A stretch of 44,446 nt of DNA. Source: Escherichia phage vB_EcoM_SHAK7704. The DNA lies in the sequence record OR594181. One strand, 5' to 3'. Positions 8,102 to 44,446 of the stretch are shown one piece after another. The position numbers were made by a program, and so were the translations under genes. The notes beneath the pieces are model-generated. The model saw only the letters and a list, made by a program, of their open reading frames with translations. It searched no databases and was not told the DNA's origin. Position 1 is the stretch's first letter. Every line of letters starts with the position of its first letter.

Positions 8102-8251
8102 AGCAATCACTGAGACGGACCTAGCAAGCTGTCTCAGGTTATAAGCAGGAGAATTGATGCGTAAGCCATAGCTAGTGGATGTAGTCGCATGAAGGCTTGA
8201 GTAAGGGGCCGCTTAATACCTTCTTCCTCTGGAGACAACGCTTATAACACT

Positions 8252-8550: not shown

Positions 8551-8716
8551 CCGTGAACTGTCCGTTCTCTTCACTCTGTTGTGCTACATGATTCGTAACA
8601 ACGAATTACTTACAGATGATGAGTTAGCCTTGTATCACCGCTTTCTTAACGAAGGTTGGACCGATACGGTTAATCAATACCGTAACATGATAGATGAGTT
8701 GAGGGAGGGTAGATAA
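8537..8716 (+). CDS. Early hypothetical protein
   Basis: ATG 8537 after GAGGG RBS; stop overlaps the next start. Confidence 0.45.
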   Translation: MTLNNRELSVLFTLLCYMIRNNELLTDDELALYHRFLNEGWTDTVNQYRNMIDELREGR

Positions 8717-8940
8717 TGTATCAACATGAGGTATTCTTTGAATCATCTAGCGAAGCTATTCGCTTCCACGATGATATGCTACAAGCTGGCGTAGGTGTTG
8801 ATGTACATCACTTCCTACTAGATTACGACACTGAATATCACCGAGTTACCTTAGTATCTGAGTATGACAACCAAGTCATTACTGAGTATCTAGGTAGTGA
8901 AGATTATGATTACGATGAAGTAATCACGACAAATCTCTAA
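8716..8940 (+). CDS. Early hypothetical acidic protein
   Basis: 74 aa; TAATG stop-start overlap; Asp/Glu/Tyr-rich. Confidence 0.5.
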   Translation: MYQHEVFFESSSEAIRFHDDMLQAGVGVDVHHFLLDYDTEYHRVTLVSEYDNQVITEYLGSEDYDYDEVITTNL

Positions 8941-9010
8941 ATTAACTATTGACAACCACGGCATACAAGGTTACATTAAGCATCAAGACGGCGACGTCTT
9001 TAAACATCAC

Positions 9011-9023
9011 GCTCTTTAACAAT
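9011..9023 (+). promoter_or_regulatory. Conserved 13-mer GCTCTTTAACAAT (copy 2)
   Basis: Preceded by hairpin AAGACG-gcga-CGTCTT. Confidence 0.4.
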
Positions 9024-9168
9024 AGAGATTAGGCCGGGAGTATCGGTGTGAGGGACAAGGAGGCTTTCCCACAATTAAACTGGTGGCAAAAGGATTGCCC
9101 AGCTTTATAGCCCAGTTATGGATAGCAATAGCGTAAGGATGGCAGCACACCCGCGAGTCTAATCTCTA

Positions 9169-9181
9169 GCTCTTTAACAAT
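9169..9181 (+). promoter_or_regulatory. Conserved 13-mer GCTCTTTAACAAT (copy 3)
   Basis: Upstream of the 9225 ORF. Confidence 0.4.
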
Positions 9182-9224
9182 CGGGCTAGTGCCTTGGTAG
9201 GCTAACTACTTACTAAGGTGAACT

Positions 9225-9437
9225 ATGAACTACTGCGACATCGCTCACGAATTACGCATGGAACGTGAGAAACAAGAGAAGCGGATTATCAAGAAGATGG
9301 CTGTACTGCTTGCACACTATAAGGCAGACAAACAGCCAACACATGATGAGTTCGTGGACTTCTGTAACATGTATCTTAATGTGAGTAAGGCCACTGGTTA
9401 CAGATGGCTTAAAGCACTGAATGATGGAGAATTGTAG
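9225..9437 (+). CDS. Early small protein with possible HTH-like segment
   Basis: 70 aa; AAGGTG RBS; C-terminal SKATGYRWLKAL resembles excisionase/AlpA-type DNA-binding helices. Confidence 0.5.
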   Translation: MNYCDIAHELRMEREKQEKRIIKKMAVLLAHYKADKQPTHDEFVDFCNMYLNVSKATGYRWLKALNDGEL

Positions 9438-10638: not shown

Positions 10639-10702
10639 CTAGCCTATAGCCTACCTGTGTGGGCTATGTGATATTTACTTACCACTATATAAGGTGACTA
10701 TT

Positions 10703-11650: not shown

Positions 11651-14278
11651 ATGCAAGACCTACACGCTATTCAACTTCAACTTGAAGAAGAAATGTTTAA
11701 CGGCGGTATCCGTCGCTTTGAAGCGGACCAACAACGCCAGATTGCATCCGGTAATGAATCAGACACGGCATGGAATCGCCGTTTATTGTCCGAGTTAATC
11801 GCGCCAATGGCTGAAGGTATTCAGGCATACAAGGAAGAGTATGAAGGTAAAAGAGGCCGTGCACCGCGTGCATTAGCTTTCATTAACTGCGTAGAAAACG
11901 AAGTGGCAGCATATATCACGATGAAAATCGTTATGGATATGCTGAATACAGACGTTACCTTACAAGCAATCGCTATGAATGTAGCGGACCGCATCGAAGA
12001 CCAAGTACGTTTTAGCAAGCTGGAAGGTCACGCAGCTAAGTACTTTGAGAAAGTGAAGAAGTCGCTTAAGGCTAGCAAGACTAAATCTTATCGTCATGCG
12101 CACAACGTAGCGGTAGTAGCTGAGAAATCTGTTGCTGACCGTGACGCGGATTTCTCCCGTTGGGAGGCATGGCCTAAAGATACCTTGCTACAAATCGGTA
12201 TAACCTTGCTAGAAATACTGGAAAATAGTGTATTCTTCAATGGTCAGCCTGTCTTTCTTCGCACCTTGCGCACTAATGGTGGCAAGCATGGCGTTTACTA
12301 CTTACAGACCAGTGAACACGTAGGGGAATGGATTACAGCATTTAAAGAACATGTAGCGCAACTTAGCCCGGCTTATGCACCTTGCGTTATACCTCCGCGT
12401 CCGTGGGTTTCTCCTTTTAATGGCGGTTTTCACACTGAGAAGGTAGCAAGTCGTGTGCGTCTTGTTAAAGGCAGCCGTGAACACGTCCGCAAGCTGACCA
12501 AAAAGCAAATGCCAGCGGTTTACAAGGCTGTTAACGCTTTGCAGGCGACTAAATGGCAGGTTAACAAGGAAGTTTTACAGGTTGTTGAGGACGTAATACG
12601 GCTTGATTTAGGCTATGGCGTACCTTCCTTCAAACCACTCATCGACCGCGAGAACAAGCCAGCTAATCCGGTGCCGTTAGAGTTCCAGCACCTGCGAGGC
12701 CGTGAACTGAAAGAAATGTTAACACCGGAACAATGGCAAGCCTTCATCAACTGGAAAGGTGAATGCACCAAGCTGTATACCGCTGAGACTAAGCGCGGCA
12801 GCAAATCGGCGGCGACCGTCCGCATGGTAGGGCAGGCCCGTAAATACAGCCGATTTGACGCAATATACTTCGTGTATGCTCTGGACAGCCGCAGCCGCGT
12901 CTACGCGCAATCTAGCACGCTCTCTCCACAATCAAACGACTTAGGCAAGGCATTGCTCCGTTTTACCGAAGGGCAGCGTCTTGATAGCGCTGAGGCGCTT
13001 AAGTGGTTTTTGGTGAACGGGGCTAATAACTGGGGTTGGGATAAGAAAACTTTTGACGTGCGCACCGCTAACGTGCTGGATAGTGAATTTCAAGACATGT
13101 GCCGCGACATTGCAGCGGATCCGCTGACCTTCACTCAATGGGTAAATGCCGACTCCCCTTACGGCTTCCTTGCATGGTGCTTTGAATATGCGCGTTATCT
13201 GGATGCACTGGATGAAGGCACGCAAGACCAATTCATGACGCACCTCCCAGTCCATCAAGATGGTAGTTGTTCTGGTATCCAGCACTACAGTGCTATGCTA
13301 CGCGATGCAGTAGGTGCGAAAGCGGTAAACCTTAAGCCCTCTGACTCACCTCAAGATATTTATGGTGCCGTTGCGCAGGTAGTAATTCAGAAGAATTATG
13401 CATACATGAATGCAGAGGATGCGGAAACCTTCACTTCTGGCAGCGTGACTTTAACAGGTGCAGAACTTCGTAGCATGGCTAGTGCGTGGGATATGATAGG
13501 AATCACTCGCGGCCTGACCAAAAAGCCTGTAATGACACTACCTTATGGCAGCACACGTCTAACCTGCCGTGAATCAGTGATTGATTATATCGTTGATTTG
13601 GAAGAAAAAGAGGCCCAACGGGCTATTGCGGAAGGGCGTACCGCCAATCCTGTACATCCTTTTGATAATGACCGCAAAGACAGCCTGACACCTAGCGCAG
13701 CTTATAACTATATGACAGCTTTAATCTGGCCTTCTATTTCGGAAGTGGTTAAAGCTCCTATAGTGGCAATGAAAATGATTCGTCAGCTTGCACGTTTCGC
13801 AGCTAAAAGAAACGAAGGCTTAGAATATCCCTTACCAACTGGCTTCATCTTGCAACAAAAGATAATGGCTACCGATATGCTCCGCGTATCCACTTGCTTG
13901 ATGGGTGAAATCAAGATGAGTCTCCAGATTGAAACAGATGTAGTTGATGAAACGGCAATGATGGGTGCGGCTGCCCCTAACTTCGTCCATGGTCACGATG
14001 CTAGCCACCTGATTCTGACTGTATGTGACCTAGTGGATAAAGGTATTACATCCATTGCAGTCATCCATGATTCTTTCGGTACTCATGCAGGACGTACCGC
14101 AGACCTGCGGGATAGCTTAAGGGAAGAAATGGTTAAGATGTATCAAAACCATAATGCCCTGCAAAACCTGCTAGATGTGCACGAAGAGCGTTGGTTAGTA
14201 GACACCGGAATCCAAGTACCAGAGCAAGGAGAGTTTGACCTTAACGAAATCTTAGTTTCAGACTATTGTTTCGCATAA
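11651..14278 (+). CDS. Single-subunit DNA-dependent RNA polymerase (T7 gene 1-like)
   Basis: 875 aa; C-terminus ...DYCFA like T7 RNAP ...FAFA; preceded by early genes. Confidence 0.95.
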
Positions 14279-14563: not shown

Positions 14564-14581
14564 ATTTACCGGACAGTATAG
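14564..14581 (+). promoter_or_regulatory. Phage RNAP promoter variant ATTTACCGGACAGTATAG
   Basis: Two substitutions from consensus; precedes the 14612 ORF. Confidence 0.5.
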
Positions 14582-14611
14582 ATAAGATTAACTCACTTTG
14601 GAGATTTAACC

Positions 14612-14743: not shown

Positions 14744-14962
14744 ATGGCTAAATACAGAATCAAGACCTGTTTAAATAGTCACGGGCAAGAGTGCTACATA
14801 GTGCAACGTAAAGTATTAGGCTTAATATGGGTCACGTGTATGATGCCTATTGGCTATACTGATACAGAGGCTATCTTCTGCACCGAAAGGGATGCAAAGA
14901 AGTTTATCTCTGAGCGTAGAAAAGCTGACTCTTACCAACCCAGAACTATTAAGGTGAACTAA
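14744..14962 (+). CDS. Hypothetical protein
   Basis: 72 aa; stop overlaps the primase/helicase start. Confidence 0.5.
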   Translation: MAKYRIKTCLNSHGQECYIVQRKVLGLIWVTCMMPIGYTDTEAIFCTERDAKKFISERRKADSYQPRTIKVN

Positions 14963-16950
14963 TGGCTATTATTAATAACATCCCGTGCCCTGCCTGCCAG
15001 AAGAATGGACACGATAAATCCGGCAATCATCTCATGATATTTGATGATGGTGCTGGCTATTGTAACCGTGGTCATTTCCACGATAACGGCAAGCCTTACT
15101 ATCATAAGCCAGAAGGTGGCATCGAGATCACCGAGTTGCCTATTACTGGCAATATCAAATATACACCTTCTCAATTCAAAGAGATGGAGAAGGAAGGGAA
15201 GATAAGCGACCCTAAGTTACGCGCCATCGCACTTGGTGGTATGCGTATGAAAGACCGATGGGAGGTCATGAATGAGCAAGAAAGGGCAGACCAAGAAGCA
15301 GAGTGGAAACTTGATGTTGAATGGTTCCTCACGCTTAAGCGTAAGAATCTTGTTTCCCGACACATTCGCGGCGACATTTGCGCATTGTATGATGTACGTG
15401 TCGGACACGATGAAGATGGTAGAGTCTCACGGCATTACTATCCACGCTTCGAGAAAGGTGAGCTAGTAGGCGCTAAGTGTCGCACATTACCTAAAGACTT
15501 TAAGTTTGGTCATTTAGGTAAACTCTTTGGTATGCAAGATCTTTTCGGTATGAATACTTTGTCTCACGTGTTAGACAAGGGAAGACGAAAGGATTGCTTG
15601 CTTATTGTAGGTGGTGAACTTGATGCACTAGCAGCACAGCAAATGCTCCTTGATTCTGCCAAGGGTACTAAGTGGGAAGGCCAGCCTTACCATGTATGGT
15701 CTGTCAATAAAGGTGAGTCTTGCCTTGAAGAGATAGTACAGAACCGTGAACACATCGCCCAATTTAAGAAGATTATATGGGGTTTTGATGGCGACGAGGT
15801 GGGGCAGAAGCAGAATCAGCAAGCGGCTCGCCTGTTTCCTGGCAAATCCTATATCCTTGAATACCCTTCTGGTTGCAAAGATGCTAACAAGGCATTGATG
15901 GCTGGCAAGGCTAAAGAGTTTGTTGATGCTTGGTTTAATGCCAAGTCATCTGATGAAGTCTTTGGTAGCCAGATTAAATCTATCGCATCTCAAAGGGATA
16001 AGCTCAAGGCTGCACGTCCAGAGCAAGGACTATCATGGCCTTGGCCTAAGCTGAACAAGGTAACGCTAGGTATTCGTAAGAACCAGCTTATCATTGTAGG
16101 TGCAGGTTCTGGTGTAGGTAAGACTGAGTTCCTCCGCGAAGTGGTTAAACATCTCATTGAAGAACACGGTGAATCTGTAGGCATCATTTCTACAGAAGAC
16201 CCAATGGTCAAGGTGTCCCGTGCTTTTATCGGCAAGTGGATTGATAAGCGTATTGAGTTACCGCCAACCAACGACCCGAAAGAAGACGGATACCGTGAGG
16301 TGTTCGACTACACCGAGGAAGAAGCTAACGCTGCCATTGATTATGTAGCTGATACAGGAAAGCTATTTGTGGCTGACCTAGAAGGCGATTATTCTATGGA
16401 GAAGGTAGAGCAAACTTGCCTAGAGTTTGAGGCTATGGGCATTTCTAATATCATCATTGATAACTTAACGGGGATTAAATTAGATGAGCGTGCTTTTGGT
16501 GGGAAGGTTGGTGCACTTGATGAATGCGTCAAACGAATTGGTACTATCAAAGACCGACATGCGGTTACGATTTTCCTTGTCTCTCACCTTACACGTCCTC
16601 CGGCAAACCGTACCCAACACGAAGAAGGTGGCGAAGTTATCCTTTCTGACTTCCGAGGCTCAGGCGCTATCGGATTCTGGGCATCTTACGCCTTGGGGAT
16701 TGAGCGTAATACAAGAGCTGAAACGCTTGATGAAAGGACTACCACGTACATCTCGTGTGTCAAAGACCGCGATCAAGGTATCTACACTGGAACCAAGGTC
16801 ATGCTTAAAGGTGACATTCAGACCGGACGTTTGATGGAACCACAAGCCCGTACTAAGTCATTTGATACAGGTGAAGCAAGGCAGCAAGAGGTGCCTGATT
16901 TACCGGACACTATAGAAGAGACAAACTTTGAAGATGAACAGGAGTTTTAA
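14962..16950 (+). CDS. DNA primase/helicase (T7 gp4-like)
   Basis: 662 aa; N-terminal Cys4 zinc motif CPAC...C..GH; Walker A GAGSGVGKT; acidic C-terminus ending in Phe (EDEQEF). Confidence 0.9.
   Translation: MAIINNIPCPACQKNGHDKSGNHLMIFDDGAGYCNRGHFHDNGKPYYHKPEGGIEITELPITGNIKYTPSQFKEMEKEGKISDPKLRAIALGGMRMKDRWEVMNEQERADQEAEWKLDVEWFLTLKRKNLVSRHIRGDICALYDVRVGHDEDGRVSRHYYPRFEKGELVGAKCRTLPKDFKFGHLGKLFGMQDLFGMNTLSHVLDKGRRKDCLLIVGGELDALAAQQMLLDSAKGTKWEGQPYHVWSVNKGESCLEEIVQNREHIAQFKKIIWGFDGDEVGQKQNQQAARLFPGKSYILEYPSGCKDANKALMAGKAKEFVDAWFNAKSSDEVFGSQIKSIASQRDKLKAARPEQGLSWPWPKLNKVTLGIRKNQLIIVGAGSGVGKTEFLREVVKHLIEEHGESVGIISTEDPMVKVSRAFIGKWIDKRIELPPTNDPKEDGYREVFDYTEEEANAAIDYVADTGKLFVADLEGDYSMEKVEQTCLEFEAMGISNIIIDNLTGIKLDERAFGGKVGALDECVKRIGTIKDRHAVTIFLVSHLTRPPANRTQHEEGGEVILSDFRGSGAIGFWASYALGIERNTRAETLDERTTTYISCVKDRDQGIYTGTKVMLKGDIQTGRLMEPQARTKSFDTGEARQQEVPDLPDTIEETNFEDEQEF
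16898..16915 (+). promoter_or_regulatory. Phage RNAP promoter ATTTACCGGACACTATAG inside the primase/helicase 3' end
   Basis: 18-mer lies in coding sequence and encodes ...PDTIEE... Confidence 0.6.
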
Positions 16951-17111
16951 TGGAAATTATTAAACCAGTATTGAATATCGGTATTGAGATCCTATTCATG
17001 CTTGTGATCGCAGATTATGCTGCACGATATGGATTCAAGAAAGCGGTGAAACTTATCGTTGCATCTGGTTTTCTTATGTCAATGTTCTTTATTGTAACAC
17101 GCCTTATCTAG
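16950..17111 (+). CDS. Small membrane protein (53 aa)
   Basis: Not in the ORF track; TAATG overlap with the helicase stop; two hydrophobic segments. Confidence 0.4.
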   Translation: MEIIKPVLNIGIEILFMLVIADYAARYGFKKAVKLIVASGFLMSMFFIVTRLI

Positions 17112-17183: not shown

Positions 17184-17867
17184 ATGTATAAATTAGTATT
17201 GAATGCAGGTGATTATGTTCGTAACATCAATGCAACCTCACGTAGATATCGTTGCCGTGGTACTGTGACTAATGTAAGTGAAAACAGCTACTATGTAGAG
17301 TACAGTAATGGTATTAGACAGGCTTATCAAAAGGAATCAGCACATAACTACCTTGAGAAGATTGGAGAGGTAAGCAATCAATGTAAGTGCGTACACGATG
17401 AGATTTGCGATAAGTGTGCCCGCCAGATGCATAAAATGCTATTATACCCTCTTCGCTATGGTGCTGGCATTCAAACCTTAGCAGAGGCATATGGCAAAGG
17501 TAAGACTACACTTAATAAAGATCGCCGCAATGTAATCACTGGTAAGACTCAAAGTGAAATGATTAAGCAATGTGGCACTGCACTAGGTGTTACGCAGTTT
17601 AACACTCGTGCTCTTGGTAAATCCACAGGACAAGCTATGGTGAAGATTGGTGAAGCCATGATGCACCCAAATGTACCTGTGCGAATCATGGATGTTGACC
17701 ATGCAATCACAGAACACGGTACACCACGACGTGTAGCTAATAAGCATTTTGCCGACACTATAGAAGTTATTATCCGTAAGCAAGGGTTGAAAGGTCTTCA
17801 CCTCTTGAATGGTGAAGAATTACTGTATCTCCCTATTGTTACTGAAGAAACCTACGTGAATATTTAA
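17184..17867 (+). CDS. Hypothetical protein with Cys cluster
   Basis: 227 aa; GGAG RBS before ATG 17184; CKCVHDEICDKC cluster; contains promoter-like 18-mer at 17746-17763. Confidence 0.6.
   Translation: MYKLVLNAGDYVRNINATSRRYRCRGTVTNVSENSYYVEYSNGIRQAYQKESAHNYLEKIGEVSNQCKCVHDEICDKCARQMHKMLLYPLRYGAGIQTLAEAYGKGKTTLNKDRRNVITGKTQSEMIKQCGTALGVTQFNTRALGKSTGQAMVKIGEAMMHPNVPVRIMDVDHAITEHGTPRRVANKHFADTIEVIIRKQGLKGLHLLNGEELLYLPIVTEETYVNI
17746..17763 (+). promoter_or_regulatory. Variant phage promoter ATTTTGCCGACACTATAG, intragenic
   Basis: Conserved GACACTATAG core with a divergent upstream half; encodes ...ADTIEV... Confidence 0.35.
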
Positions 17868-21789: not shown

Positions 21790-22089
21790 ATGATGGAAGA
21801 AGTGATTCAAGCTAAACATGTAGGTATCATCTTTCGTGATCTAGAGCAGCGTAAAGTTGCAGGTCACACTCGTCTGGCTAAAGAAGACGATACAGCAATC
21901 ACTACTGTGGAACAAGCAGATGCCTATCGTGGTCCAGAGTTTACTCAAGGTGAAACTTGTCATCAATTGAGCCTTTCACTTTGTGACACTATGGCTAGTG
22001 TAAATGTACAAGAGGTTGAAGATGGTGAATGTGTTAGTTATGTCTACCCTCTCGATACTATTGCACGTATTAAGGTAGTTCATAAGTAA
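21790..22089 (+). CDS. Hypothetical protein
   Basis: 99 aa. Confidence 0.55.
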   Translation: MMEEVIQAKHVGIIFRDLEQRKVAGHTRLAKEDDTAITTVEQADAYRGPEFTQGETCHQLSLSLCDTMASVNVQEVEDGECVSYVYPLDTIARIKVVHK

Positions 22090-25009: not shown

Positions 25010-25407
25010 AAGCATCGGAGGTGGCAGCTTATAAGAAGGAATTGCTAGATAAGCAAGGATGGAAATGCCCTCTGTGTGGTGGCAGTCTCAAAGCTGTCAC
25101 ACCTGTAAACCGTGTACTTGACCATGACCATGAGACAGGATTCTGCCGTGCTGTTGTATGCCGAGGTTGCAATGGTGCGGAAGGGAAGATTAAGGGTGTT
25201 ATCTCTGGTTATGGCAAGGCGGGTAATAACCGTTACTTCCAGCTTCAATGGTTAGAGAGATTGTACGAATACTGGAAGTTACATAGTACGCCTCAGACAG
25301 ATAAGTTATATCACAAACATCAAACGGAGGCAGAGAAGCGCGAGGCTAAGAACCGTAAGGCACGCCTTGCTTATGCAAGAAAGAAGAAGGAGGTTAAAGT
25401 TGGGTAA
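24994..25407 (+). CDS. Endonuclease VII-like junction-resolving nuclease
   Basis: 137 aa; CPLCGG...DHDHETG...CRGCNG pattern. Confidence 0.7.
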   Translation: MVSKLKASEVAAYKKELLDKQGWKCPLCGGSLKAVTPVNRVLDHDHETGFCRAVVCRGCNGAEGKIKGVISGYGKAGNNRYFQLQWLERLYEYWKLHSTPQTDKLYHKHQTEAEKREAKNRKARLAYARKKKEVKVG

Positions 25408-26407
25408 GCTTCGCAGCTTGTACAAAGACTCCGAGGTACTTGATGCAATCGAGCAAGCTACCGACGAGAAAGGTAATGTTAACTACAACGAGATGGCACG
25501 GGTATTATCGTGTCACCCTGTGGGTAAGAAGATTACCCGCCAGTTGGCTCGATACTGGCATGGTCAATTCAAGAAGACCAAGAAGAATGGTGATTACTAC
25601 CAGACTCTTCTGCAAGAGGATAAGCGTATCAAAGAAGAGCGTAAGCTCAGGACTCCTGACCGCTACGAGGATTTGGCTATTGTACCACTGCCTGACTCGC
25701 CTCATCGAAGTGTACTGGTAATCCCTGACACTCATGCACCTTACGAGCACCCAGATACCTTAGAGTTCCTTGCAGCAGTGGCAGCACGTTACCGTCCTGA
25801 TACGGTGGTTCATCTTGGAGATGAGGCAGACAAACATGCCTTATCGTTCCACGATTCGGACCCAAATCTGGACAGTGCTGGCATGGAATTAGAGAAGGCT
25901 CGTGTCTTCATGCACAAGTTGCACAAGATGTTTCCTGTGATGCGCCTGTGTCATTCTAATCACGGCTCTATGCACTTCCGTAAGGCAAGCGCCAAGGGTA
26001 TTCCAGTGCAATATCTTCGTACATACCGTGAAGTCTTCTTCCCAAATGGAGGTGGCGACCAGTGGGATTGGCAACATACACACGTACTTGAGTTGCCGAA
26101 TGGTGAACAGGTAGCATTCAAGCATCAACCTGCTGGCTCTGTCTTAGCAGATGCAGCGCATGAGCGTATGAACCTTGTGTGTGGTCACTTGCATGGTAAG
26201 ATGTCTGTGGAGTACGCACGTAATACACATGAACAGTATTGGGCTGTGCAGGGCGGCTGTTTGATTGATGAGTCATCTCGTGCATTTGCCTATGGTCGTG
26301 AGTCCAAATACAAGCCAGCATTAGGTTGTGTGGTTATTCTGGAGGGTGTGCCGCACATTGTCCCGATGCAGACCAATAGTGACAATCGCTGGATTGGTAA
26401 GATTTAG
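25373..26407 (+). CDS. Calcineurin-like metallophosphoesterase
   Basis: Motifs PDTH, GDEADKH, SNHG, GHLHG; start uncertain (ATG 25373, or TTG 25400 with AGGAGG 6 nt upstream; track 25367). Confidence 0.65.
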   Translation: MQERRRRLKLGKLRSLYKDSEVLDAIEQATDEKGNVNYNEMARVLSCHPVGKKITRQLARYWHGQFKKTKKNGDYYQTLLQEDKRIKEERKLRTPDRYEDLAIVPLPDSPHRSVLVIPDTHAPYEHPDTLEFLAAVAARYRPDTVVHLGDEADKHALSFHDSDPNLDSAGMELEKARVFMHKLHKMFPVMRLCHSNHGSMHFRKASAKGIPVQYLRTYREVFFPNGGGDQWDWQHTHVLELPNGEQVAFKHQPAGSVLADAAHERMNLVCGHLHGKMSVEYARNTHEQYWAVQGGCLIDESSRAFAYGRESKYKPALGCVVILEGVPHIVPMQTNSDNRWIGKI

Positions 26408-26419
26408 TTGACACTATAG
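26402..26419 (+). promoter_or_regulatory. Variant phage promoter ATTTAGTTGACACTATAG (SP6-like)
   Basis: One mismatch from the SP6 consensus; overlaps the phosphoesterase TAG stop. Confidence 0.55.
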
Positions 26420-26475
26420 AACAAAGGGTAGGTATTAGCTTACCCTTGATTGTATAGTGAATGGAGGAATTAATT

Positions 26476-29006: not shown

Positions 29007-30557
29007 ATGAAACAGAGCACAGATTTGGAGTATGGAGGTAAGCGGTCTAAGATACCTAAGCTATGGGAGAAGTTCTCCACTAAACGTAGCTCTTTCCTTG
29101 ATAGGGCGAAGCATTACTCCAAATTAACCTTGCCCTATCTGATGAATGACAAAGGTGATAACGAGACTTCGCAGAATGGATGGCAAGGTGTAGGTGCTCA
29201 GGCAACTAATCATCTAGCCAACAAGCTAGCGCAAGTACTATTCCCTGCACAGCGTTCCTTCTTCCGTGTAGACTTAACTGCACAAGGTGAGAAGGTTCTT
29301 AATCAGCGTGGCCTGAAGAAGACAGAGCTAGCTACCATCTTCGCTCAAGTGGAAACACGGGCAATGAAAGAGTTAGAGCAACGTCAATTCCGGCCTGCTG
29401 TAGTGGAAGCATTCAAGCATCTTATTGTTGCTGGTAGCTGTATGCTATACAAGCCGAGCAAAGGTGCAATCAGTGCTATCCCAATGCATCACTATGTAGT
29501 TAACCGTGATACCAATGGCGACCTGTTAGACATTATCTTACTGCAAGAGAAAGCCTTACGCACCTTTGACCCAGCTACACGTGCTGTAGTAGAGGTTGGC
29601 CTGAAAGGTAAGAAGTGCAAGGAGGATGACAGCGTTAAGCTGTACACACATGCTAAGTATCTTGGTGATGGCTTTTGGGAACTCAAGCAATCTGCTGATG
29701 ATATCCCTGTGGGTAAGGTGAGTAAAATCAAATCAGAAAAGCTACCTTTCATCCCATTAACTTGGAAGCGAAGCTATGGTGAGGATTGGGGTCGCCCTCT
29801 TGCAGAGGATTACTCCGGTGATTTATTCGTTATCCAATTCTTATCTGAAGCGGTTGCCCGTGGTGCTGCGCTGATGGCAGATATCAAGTACCTGATTCGT
29901 CCGGGTGCTCAGACTGATGTTGACCACTTTGTTAACTCTGGCACTGGTGAGGTTGTCACTGGTGTAGAAGAAGACATCCATATTGTACAGTTAGGTAAGT
30001 ACGCAGACCTCACACCTATTAGCGCGGTTCTAGAGGTGTACACTCGCCGTATCGGTGTCGTATTCATGATGGAGACAATGACACGCCGTGACGCCGAACG
30101 TGTTACTGCTGTAGAAATCCAGCGAGATGCGTTAGAGATTGAGCAGAACATGGGTGGTGTATATTCCCTCTTTGCTACTACTATGCAATCGCCAGTAGCG
30201 ATGTGGGGTCTGCTGGAGGCAGGGGAGTCCTTCACTAGTGACTTAGTGGACCCTGTGATTATCACAGGTATTGAAGCTTTAGGACGCATGGCTGAGTTGG
30301 ATAAACTGGCTAACTTTGCTCAGTATATGTCACTGCCATTACAATGGCCTGAGCCTGTCCTAGCTGCTGTGAAATGGCCTGACTATATGGATTGGGTGCG
30401 TGGTCAAATCTCTGCTGAACTGCCGTTCCTTAAATCGGCTGAAGAGATGGCACAAGAACAGGAAGCACAGATGCAAGCACAGCAAGCACAGATGCTTGAA
30501 GAAGGTGTGGCTAAGGCCGTGCCGGGTGTAATTCAACAAGAACTTAAGGAGGCGTAA
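29007..30557 (+). CDS. Portal (head-tail connector) protein
   Basis: 516 aa; WQGVGAQATNHLANKLAQVLFP and RVTAVEIQRDALEIEQNMGGVYS resemble T7 gp8 segments as recalled. Confidence 0.9.
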   Translation: MKQSTDLEYGGKRSKIPKLWEKFSTKRSSFLDRAKHYSKLTLPYLMNDKGDNETSQNGWQGVGAQATNHLANKLAQVLFPAQRSFFRVDLTAQGEKVLNQRGLKKTELATIFAQVETRAMKELEQRQFRPAVVEAFKHLIVAGSCMLYKPSKGAISAIPMHHYVVNRDTNGDLLDIILLQEKALRTFDPATRAVVEVGLKGKKCKEDDSVKLYTHAKYLGDGFWELKQSADDIPVGKVSKIKSEKLPFIPLTWKRSYGEDWGRPLAEDYSGDLFVIQFLSEAVARGAALMADIKYLIRPGAQTDVDHFVNSGTGEVVTGVEEDIHIVQLGKYADLTPISAVLEVYTRRIGVVFMMETMTRRDAERVTAVEIQRDALEIEQNMGGVYSLFATTMQSPVAMWGLLEAGESFTSDLVDPVIITGIEALGRMAELDKLANFAQYMSLPLQWPEPVLAAVKWPDYMDWVRGQISAELPFLKSAEEMAQEQEAQMQAQQAQMLEEGVAKAVPGVIQQELKEA

Positions 30558-43969: not shown

Positions 43970-44164
43970 ATGATTAACTCCGAACTGGTAGATAGTGGTG
44001 TGAAGCTTGCGCCACCTGCATTAGTCTCAGGTGGGTACTTCCTCGGTATCAGTTGGGATAATTGGGTGTTAATAGCAACATTCATTTATACCGTGTTGCA
44101 AATTGGAGACTGGTTTTATACCAAGATTAAACTATGGAGGAAGAATCGTGAGCGTCCACAATAA
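43970..44164 (+). CDS. Holin (T7 gp17.5-like, class II)
   Basis: 64 aa; WDNWVLIATFIYTVLQIG resembles T7 gp17.5 LNEWFYVAAIAYTVVQIG as recalled; AAGGAGG RBS. Confidence 0.75.
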   Translation: MINSELVDSGVKLAPPALVSGGYFLGISWDNWVLIATFIYTVLQIGDWFYTKIKLWRKNRERPQ

Positions 44165-44446
44165 ACATGCAGCTACAGAAGATGAGGTTGGCATCCTGCA
44201 TGGTGCTATTACCAAAATCTTTAATAAGAAAGCACAGGCAATACTGGACACTATAGAAGAAGACCCAGATGCAGCACTGCATTTAGTCTCTGGTAAAGAT
44301 ATTGGAGCTATGTGTAAGTGGGTTCTTGATAATGGTATTACCGCTACACCTGCTGCACAGCAGGAGGAGTCCAAGCTATCTAAGCGCCTCAAGGCTATCC
44401 GAGAGGCATCAAGTGGCAAGATTATTCAATTCACTAAGGAGGATTG
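44148..44446 (+). CDS. Terminase small subunit (3' end wraps to position 1)
   Basis: GTG 44148 with GGAGG 7 nt upstream; ORF runs to the window end; last two bases tg plus first base a make a TGA stop overlapping the terminase ATG. Confidence 0.65.
   Translation, partial: MSVHNKHAATEDEVGILHGAITKIFNKKAQAILDTIEEDPDAALHLVSGKDIGAMCKWVLDNGITATPAAQQEESKLSKRLKAIREASSGKIIQFTKED
44259..44276 (+). promoter_or_regulatory. Phage RNAP promoter variant CAATACTGGACACTATAG, intragenic
   Basis: Conserved -12 to +1 region; encodes ...LDTIEE... of the small terminase. Confidence 0.5.

Follow-up and report, generated by a model that had tools for sequence, protein, structure and literature searches.

Three copies of a phage promoter lie in frame inside protein-coding genes of Escherichia phage vB_EcoM_SHAK7704 (sequence record OR594181), whose 44,446-nucleotide stretch of DNA was analyzed here over its full length (the window). 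The copies are found in the genes for the primase/helicase, a gp10-like protein and the small terminase, and in all three cases the DNA reads GAC ACT ATA GAA, that is, Asp-Thr-Ile-Glu. We consider it likely, with a probability of roughly 0.8, that these copies serve the phage's own T7/SP6-type RNA polymerase as promoters written into coding DNA. The first-pass annotation had reported the three in-frame copies, and this observation was confirmed, including all frames and translations. Its further proposal, that the promoter imposes the peptide, was partly supported: the three sites have different histories, so it holds for the helicase, where the peptide tracks the promoter consensus of each lineage, and fails for the small terminase, where the peptide is older, and the gp10-like gene gives a mixed picture.

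The window represents a linear Vectrevirus genome in circularly permuted form: the ATG of the large terminase opens it at base 1, the open reading frame (ORF) of the small terminase leaves it at the right end, and all of its long ORFs are on the plus strand. In the helicase region, identity is 99.4% with Escherichia phage Phi100-A and lies at 90-98% for many of the Vectrevirus (K1-5/K1E-like) phages, which belong to the SP6 group of the Molineuxvirinae. In the whole window, the 13-mer GACACTATAGAAG occurs in seven exact copies, on the plus strand only, compared with an expectation of about 0.001 per 2 x 44 kb. When up to two mismatches were allowed, 13 matches were found versus 1.38 expected, and this number was reached in none of 100 shuffles. 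Altogether, 12 sites of the promoter class were recognized, all on the plus strand, nine of them intergenic and three inside long ORFs. The nine intergenic sites share, in one orientation, an element of 21-23 bp, ATTTA(C/G)(T/C/G)(G/T)GACACTATAG(A/G)A, and the consensus obtained from the extended sites, ATTTACTGGACACTATAGAAG, equals the SP6 promoter except at -12 to -10, where it has CTG and not GGT. Thus, the element, its orientation and the presence of a cognate polymerase gene are the same as in the SP6/K1-5/K1E promoter class; the putative reader is a single-subunit RNA polymerase (11651-14278, plus strand) that is 98.6% identical to that of K1-5. The window differs from this class in that three copies lie wholly inside ORFs, the terminase copy being without the ATT at -17 to -15 and the gp10 copy without the consensus at -13 to -10.

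The intragenic cores are located on the plus strand at 16906-16918 in the helicase gene (DLPDTIEET, with D649-E652 of 662 residues), 17754-17766 in the gp10-like ORF (HFADTIEVI) and 44247-44259 in the small terminase gene (AILDTIEED). Over the 21-bp consensus (-17 to +4) they match at 20, 18 (small terminase) and 17 (gp10, marginal) of the 21 positions, and on the yardstick of a position weight matrix, intergenic promoters reached 24-38 bits under leave-one-out, compared with about 6 for the best unrelated sequences. The coordinates first given for these sites mark different points: 16898-16915 corresponds to promoter positions -17 to +1, 17746 is position -17 of the gp10 site, and 44259 is the last base of the terminase core. 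That three in-frame matches with a shared frame are a coincidence is practically negligible, as the idea is refuted by the above match statistics and the sites are conserved in relatives. The shared frame taken alone would be compatible with chance, since one of the frames (G ACA CTA TAG) contains a stop and only two are usable (DTIE and HYRR), giving P = 1/8; we therefore dismissed the shared frame as evidence.

The helicase site is the strongest of the three. The gene (14962..16950, plus strand, 662 amino acids) encodes a protein 98% identical to K1-5 gp9, and the putative promoter occupies 16898..16920 on the same strand (-17 to +6; ATTTACCGGACACTATAGAAGAG), within the last 18 helicase codons, with a predicted +1 at G16915. 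Its score of 37.8 bits is the fifth best in the genome, and it encodes D646-E653. As had been proposed, it lies in the acidic C-terminal tail of the protein, 10-17 residues before the C-terminus (tail ...EVPDLPDTIEETNFEDEQEF, followed by the stop). Homology to solved T7 gp4 structures stops at residue 607 of 662, and the part after LMEP (...TGRLMEP-QARTKSFDTGEARQQEVPDLPDTIEETNFEDEQEF) parallels the acidic C-terminal tail of T7 gp4, which ends in Phe.

The major evidence comes from relatives that use other promoters. Seven relatives from other genera were retrieved, and the promoter of each was derived from its most repeated 11-mers. An uncultivated SP6-like lineage (L028) was added through an IMG/VR scan with the helicase alignment. 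The helicase site was found to occupy the same codons in seven promoter-specificity lineages that differ in their consensus. K1-5 has the same consensus as the window, and both helicases read DLPDTIE. SP6 and K1-ULIP33 (consensus ATTTAGGTGACACTATAGAAG) have ELGDTIE and DLGDTIE, respectively. In PM116, whose consensus is TTA(A/G)AGACCACTATAGAAG, the helicase copy ACCACTATAGAA is translated as TTIE (ELETTIE); in phD2B (consensus TTAGGGGCTACTATAGAAG) the copy GCTACTATAGAA gives ATIE (EIGATIE); in PP1 (consensus TTAGGGCGGACTATAGAAG) the copy CGGACTATAGAA gives RTIE (DLGRTIE); and in Era103 (consensus TAACCACCCAGTATAGAAG) the copy CCCAGCATAGAA gives PSIE (ELPPSIE). Finally, the intergenic promoters of L028 read ATTTGTGTTGCACTATAGAAG, with which two further promoters on the same contig agree, and its helicase copy TGTTGCACTATAGAA encodes CCTIE (tail GAT GAT ATG TGT TGC ACT ATA GAA GAT, DDMCCTIED). 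Thus, in phages with another consensus, DTIE gives way at these codons to the peptide that their own promoter encodes, which is what the first-pass annotation had proposed to look for. Over positions -14 to -5, helicase copies have 0-2 mismatches to the consensus of their own lineage and 3-8 to that of any other. Moreover, the whole element lies in the ORF in a stop-free frame, and bases that would create a stop have been replaced: the Era103 consensus TAACCA would put TAA in frame, and its helicase copy reads TTACCA. These comparisons support the view that, at the helicase tail, the promoter imposes the peptide.

Co-variation appeared to extend to the polymerase. The segment ...MLRV(S/R)TCLMG(E/D)IKMS... 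of the RNA polymerase, which is taken to be the counterpart of the specificity loop of T7 polymerase, varies between lineages in step with promoter type. In L028, this putative loop differs from that of SP6 by IK→VF (GDIKMS→GDVFMS). The co-variation with both lineage consensus and polymerase was found for the helicase site across the seven lineages and was not found for the small terminase site, which is restricted to Vectrevirus. The sequences of this uncultivated lineage (L028, 9662-18340, and L048, with sites at 8196 and 10575; IMGVR_UViG_3300045988_000861) share no more than 88% identity with any isolate of the phage collection, and L028/L048 may represent a new orthogonal polymerase/promoter pair.

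A different explanation is that the peptide came first, i.e., that D-T-I-E-E is a functional short motif (acidic, helix-capping or partner-binding) and the likeness to a promoter is a by-product. In its favor, I651 and E652 are invariant among the eight helicases compared, where only P645, I651, E652 and F662 are invariant in the last 20 columns. However, the invariant I-E corresponds to ATAGAA, which is common to all promoter consensuses. In addition, the helicase residue that precedes T-I-E (D, T, A, R, P or C) varies with the local promoter, and the Salmonella phage BP12B (L023), which has GACAC-type promoters, carries no helicase-tail copy and no such motif (the peptide there is EEGEVTGAD and the tail VPEEGEVTGADETQEF). 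The fifth residue also argues against a fixed DTIEE peptide as it had been described: DTIE was upheld, whereas the codon after it merely starts with G. GAG, GGG, GTT, GGC, GGT, GAT, GAC, GAA, GGA and GCA were all seen, encoding E, G, A, V or D, and what is fixed is the G at +4. Overall, conservation regardless of codons and promoter type, as expected of a functional short motif, was absent from the helicase and gp10 and partly present in the small terminase, and for the three sites as a group we regard this explanation as improbable.

Achelous and Alpheus, two Pseudomonas phages that serve as an outgroup (45% identity in the helicase), have a copy of the recurring motif TTAAGTTGC[A/T]GTATAGATAG, which is taken to be their promoter, directly after the helicase stop and a hairpin, in an intergenic position.

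Constraint at the nucleotide level was assessed by pooling the three sites in Vectrevirus only. Third-codon positions varied at 7 of 21 positions in promoter codons versus 64 of 105 in flanks (one-sided Fisher P = 0.019), which gives modest support to the idea that constraint acts on nucleotides rather than on protein. This constraint is not absolute. All three intragenic sites are at the same places in K1-5, which differs by a single C→T at -7 of the helicase copy (GAT for GAC), and in L008 and L009 position -10 of the helicase site is A.

The second site, at 17746..17768 on the plus strand (ATTTTGCCGACACTATAGAAGTT; predicted +1 at 17763), is promoter-like, with a perfect core and off-consensus positions -13 to -10. 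It lies in a gp10-like ORF of 227 amino acids (17178/17184-17867, plus strand) that is 81% identical to K1-5 gp10 and has no Pfam family. Across 11 Vectrevirus genomes, the core (-9 to +4) shows no variation, and the codon that follows is GTT, GGC, GGT, GAT or GAC (V, G or D). A similar element is found four codons further on in the gp10 genes of the SP6 clade, and seven gp10 genes whose proteins are no more than 51-61% identical contain the 16-mer TTACGTGACACTATAG unchanged. No promoter-like sequence was present at the gp10 position in PM116, phD2B and PP1, and the element was seen in GACAC-type lineages only. In addition, L020 has a gp10 allele of the K1-5 type that does not contain the DNA motif: it reads FAAIVNHIIKKQGL where the window has FADTIEVIIRKQGL, giving AIVN in place of DTIE, which favors imposition by the promoter and speaks against a functional peptide at this place. 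On the other hand, this site might mark past exchange of gene modules. In the SP6 clade, gp10 sequence is far more divergent 5' of the site than 3' of it, and BP12B (8630-9300) keeps gp10 only from the internal site onward, with the site being a perfect consensus, ATTTAGGTGACACTATAGGTG; together with the loss of the helicase-tail promoter in this phage, the pattern suggests promoter turnover or compensation and recombination at promoter sequences. A 1-nt deletion (AAGC-TTTTGTCGACAC) in the Vectrevirus contig L015, which would shift the gp10 frame just before the core, either reflects a sequencing error or marks a pseudogene.

These observations raise the question of whether the intragenic copies, chiefly those in gp10 and the small terminase, are unused relics or recombination scars kept by descent after module exchange. 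The mosaic junction at the gp10 site, the low matrix score of that site and the SP6-type gp10 site of L028, which mismatches the other promoters of that lineage, all point in this direction. However, identity of the 16-mer across such divergent gp10 proteins, invariance of the core in the 11 Vectrevirus genomes while neighboring codons vary, and the lower variation of third positions in promoter codons than in flanks are difficult to reconcile with mere descent; the same is true of the terminase site, which needed a specific Ala→Thr change and five codon choices and is unchanged in most related loci (see below). We therefore consider it unlikely, although by no means far-fetched, that the sites are relics. 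The gp10 evidence from sequence comparison appears to favor a function at the DNA level, possibly together with a role as a recombination junction. Imposition of the peptide by the promoter at gp10 is thus plausible rather than established, and the function of the site is uncertain.

The third site has a different history. The small terminase gene (44148..44446, plus strand; 99 amino acids) encodes a protein 100% identical to K1-5 TerS that matches Pfam DNA_Packaging_2 (E = 3e-16), and its TAA stop straddles 44446/1. The putative promoter, 44239..44261 on the plus strand (CAATACTGGACACTATAGAAGAA), has a predicted +1 at 44256 and is located about 190 nt 5' of the large terminase start. Its match to the consensus is uninterrupted between -14 and +4, and its 24.3 bits equal the weakest intergenic promoter under leave-one-out. 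Positions -15 to +4 are identical in 10 of 13 other Vectrevirus loci, the three others having single changes (L040 GAT, L046 GGC and L042 GAG), and are absent in all other genera. Likewise, the string ATA CTG GAC ACT ATA GAA G was found in small terminases of Vectrevirus only, where the next codon is GAA, GGG, GGA or GCA. By contrast with the helicase, orthologues from genera with other consensuses keep the peptide, as A-I-L-D-(A/V)-I-E-(E/D)-D-P-D, or have LAAVEE, LEVIEE, LKEIEA or LGMIEE, and their codons resemble no promoter (e.g., ATC CTC GAT GCT ATC GAG). D-x-I-E-E is therefore retained across genera with different promoters and codons, as expected if the peptide came first. This is the outcome that the first-pass annotation had itself named as a refutation, and the claim that the promoter imposed the peptide was not sustained for this gene. 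The codons themselves tell another story: given LDTIE, the probability of CTG GAC ACT ATA GAA is 0.0024 under the phage's own codon usage, in which ATA makes up 14.6% of Ile codons, yet the same codons, with this rare one among them, recur at all three window sites, and the sole other D-T-I in the 20 long ORFs scanned is encoded by GAT ACT ATC. As judged from these alignments, the best reading is that the small terminase peptide probably preceded the promoter, whose contribution would be limited to the Thr residue and the choice of codons.

Several observations weigh against the view that the intragenic copies are working promoters. First, besides the changes in K1-5, L008 and L009 described above, the Era103 helicase copy has C at -4, and thus the helicase site either tolerates change or is weakened in some phages. 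Second, the gp10 site reaches 13.4 bits only, with the consensus missed at -13 to -10. Third, the gp10 site of L028 has stayed SP6-type (TTACGTGACACTATAG) while the other promoters of this lineage read GTGTTGCACTATAG, so it does not track polymerase specificity. Finally, gp35, an internal virion protein, contains L-G-D-(T/A)-I with promoter-like codons in SP6, K1-ULIP33 and PM116, whatever their own consensus. Therefore, a protein motif can mimic a promoter, and the occurrence of L-G-D-T-I in SP6 and PM116 irrespective of promoter type is also a point for the peptide-first explanation. Details of the gp35 motif are as follows: it lies at 29393-29413 in SP6 (L007; CTAGGTGACACTATAGGTG), PM116 (L005) has GACACTATAG there although its own promoters read ACCACTATAG, K1-ULIP33 is L006, and gp35 of the window is without the motif. 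Against these points stand the sequence identity, reading frame, positional conservation, co-variation with lineage consensus and nucleotide constraint of the sites, all of which were observed directly.

If the copies are promoters, a simple scheme would account for the three sites. Embedding is possible because the genes are co-oriented, the genome is tightly packed and one frame of the element is stop-free and mildly acidic (x-L-x-D-T-I-E-G..). The helicase-embedded promoter would occupy the linker of the acidic C-terminal tail, past the fold common to T7 gp4, and would serve the downstream replication genes, from a 53-aa ORF and gp10 onward to DNA polymerase. The linker sequence would be set by the needs of the DNA and would shift whenever the promoter specificity of the polymerase shifts. 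We infer that transcription starts at the three sites, and its strength, from sequence; in the helicase gene, initiation at G16915 would produce a leader that carries AGGAG from Q-E codons and then an ATG overlapping the helicase stop. This Shine-Dalgarno sequence is at 16940-16944 (plus strand), and the 53-aa ORF (16950-17111, plus strand), the first cistron past the embedded promoter, encodes a hydrophobic protein with no Pfam match, with its ATG overlapping the helicase TAA. Taking promoter, leader AGGAG and overlapping ATG together, the whole promoter-leader-ribosome-site unit would thus be contained in the last 18 helicase codons. The AGGAG is supplied by the conserved C-terminal Q-E-F codons (CAGGAGTTT); K1-5, which is without the 53-aa ORF, has ESEF and no AGGAG. 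In the small terminase, a helix-like L-D-A-I-E-E may have become a promoter in Vectrevirus via one Ala→Thr and a few synonymous changes, presumably adding transcription of the large terminase gene. The gp10 site would most likely be a weak internal promoter that marks a recombination junction. A stronger form of this scheme, in which the C-terminal linker of SP6-group helicases is a passive translation of the promoter, so that switches of polymerase specificity are recorded in the protein and tolerated by it, has in our opinion about an even chance of being correct.

A phage promoter wholly inside a primase/helicase gene is already annotated in T7, namely φ4c in gene 4, which is read in frame as QSDSLKRE. 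There, the TAA and TAG of the consensus, which would act as in-frame stops, are replaced by CAA and AAG, similar to the change of TAA to TTA in Era103. However, φ4c is part of the folded helicase domain, about 600 nt upstream of the stop, and uses a different frame (+1 being a third codon position), whereas the SP6-group site belongs to the C-terminal tail and is 36 nt away from the stop, and the two are not positionally orthologous. The tails themselves are comparable. Both follow ...TG(W/R)L(M)EP, are acidic and end in (D/E)F, but the SP6-group tail is 13 residues longer than that of T7 gp4, and the extra linker holds the promoter. The acidic tail of T7 gp4 is disordered in crystals and is reported to bind T7 DNA polymerase through its acidic residues and the terminal Phe.

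The helicase site can also be related to a more common arrangement. Promoters of the T7-group phages considered here often incorporate the stop codon of the preceding gene, which may be a TAA at -18 to -16, sharing the frame of DTIE, or a TAG at -14 to -12. An example of the latter is the intergenic-type promoter at 26402..26424 (plus strand; ATTTAGTTGACACTATAGAACAA), in which TAG at -14 to -12 (26405-26407) is the stop of the gene at 25367-26407. Further instances are TAA at -18 to -16 at 22087-22089 of the window, TAA at -15 to -13 in Era103, PP1 and phD2B, and many sites in L001-L007. The helicase site corresponds to this stop-overlap arrangement, except that GAT or GAA takes the place of the stop and the ORF continues, such that eight codons are promoter-encoded compared with the usual one or two. 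Upstream stop codons fell in frames 0, 1 and 2 in 32, 15 and 15 cases, respectively, which is suggestive, with the limit that orthologous sites are not independent.

Some other elements were noted in the window. Two degenerate promoter-like sites are located at 14564-14586, between the RNA polymerase and helicase genes (ATTTACCGGACAGTATAGATAAG, 19.7 bits), and at 10673-10695, just 5' of the gp6-like ORF (ATTTACTTACCACTATATAAGGT, 13.3 bits). A palindromic hairpin, GTCTCACATGTGAGAC, occurs in six copies between genes (7991, 14353, 14544, 17130, 18304 and 39644), and palindromic counterparts in an equivalent role are GTCCAACGTGTTGGAC in SP6-like phages and GTCTCACACTGTGAGAC in the Pseudomonas phages Achelous and Alpheus. 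This hairpin may serve as a signal for RNA processing or for termination.

Our literature search found no account of promoter/peptide co-variation, although the primary SP6 and K1-5 genome papers were outside the search and a prior description is possible. Promoters overlapping coding sequence are ordinary in T7/SP6-type phages, and it is the comparative signature that is unusually clear here. The general understanding of these phages is not altered, as T7 already has annotated promoters inside genes. Nevertheless, the helicase tail provides a natural case of regulatory DNA overriding protein, in which eight residues shift with promoter preference (e.g., to Cys-Cys, Arg or Pro-Ser), and the small terminase illustrates the reverse route, a promoter born from a pre-adapted peptide. 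The linker of the helicase tail thus appears to be free of protein constraint, and any recoding or refactoring would have to keep the DNA there. SP6-like promoter specificity is probably predictable from a protein alignment; if the linker is indeed passive, promoter specificity could be read from the helicase proteins of uncultivated phages, an approach that has already led to L028/L048.

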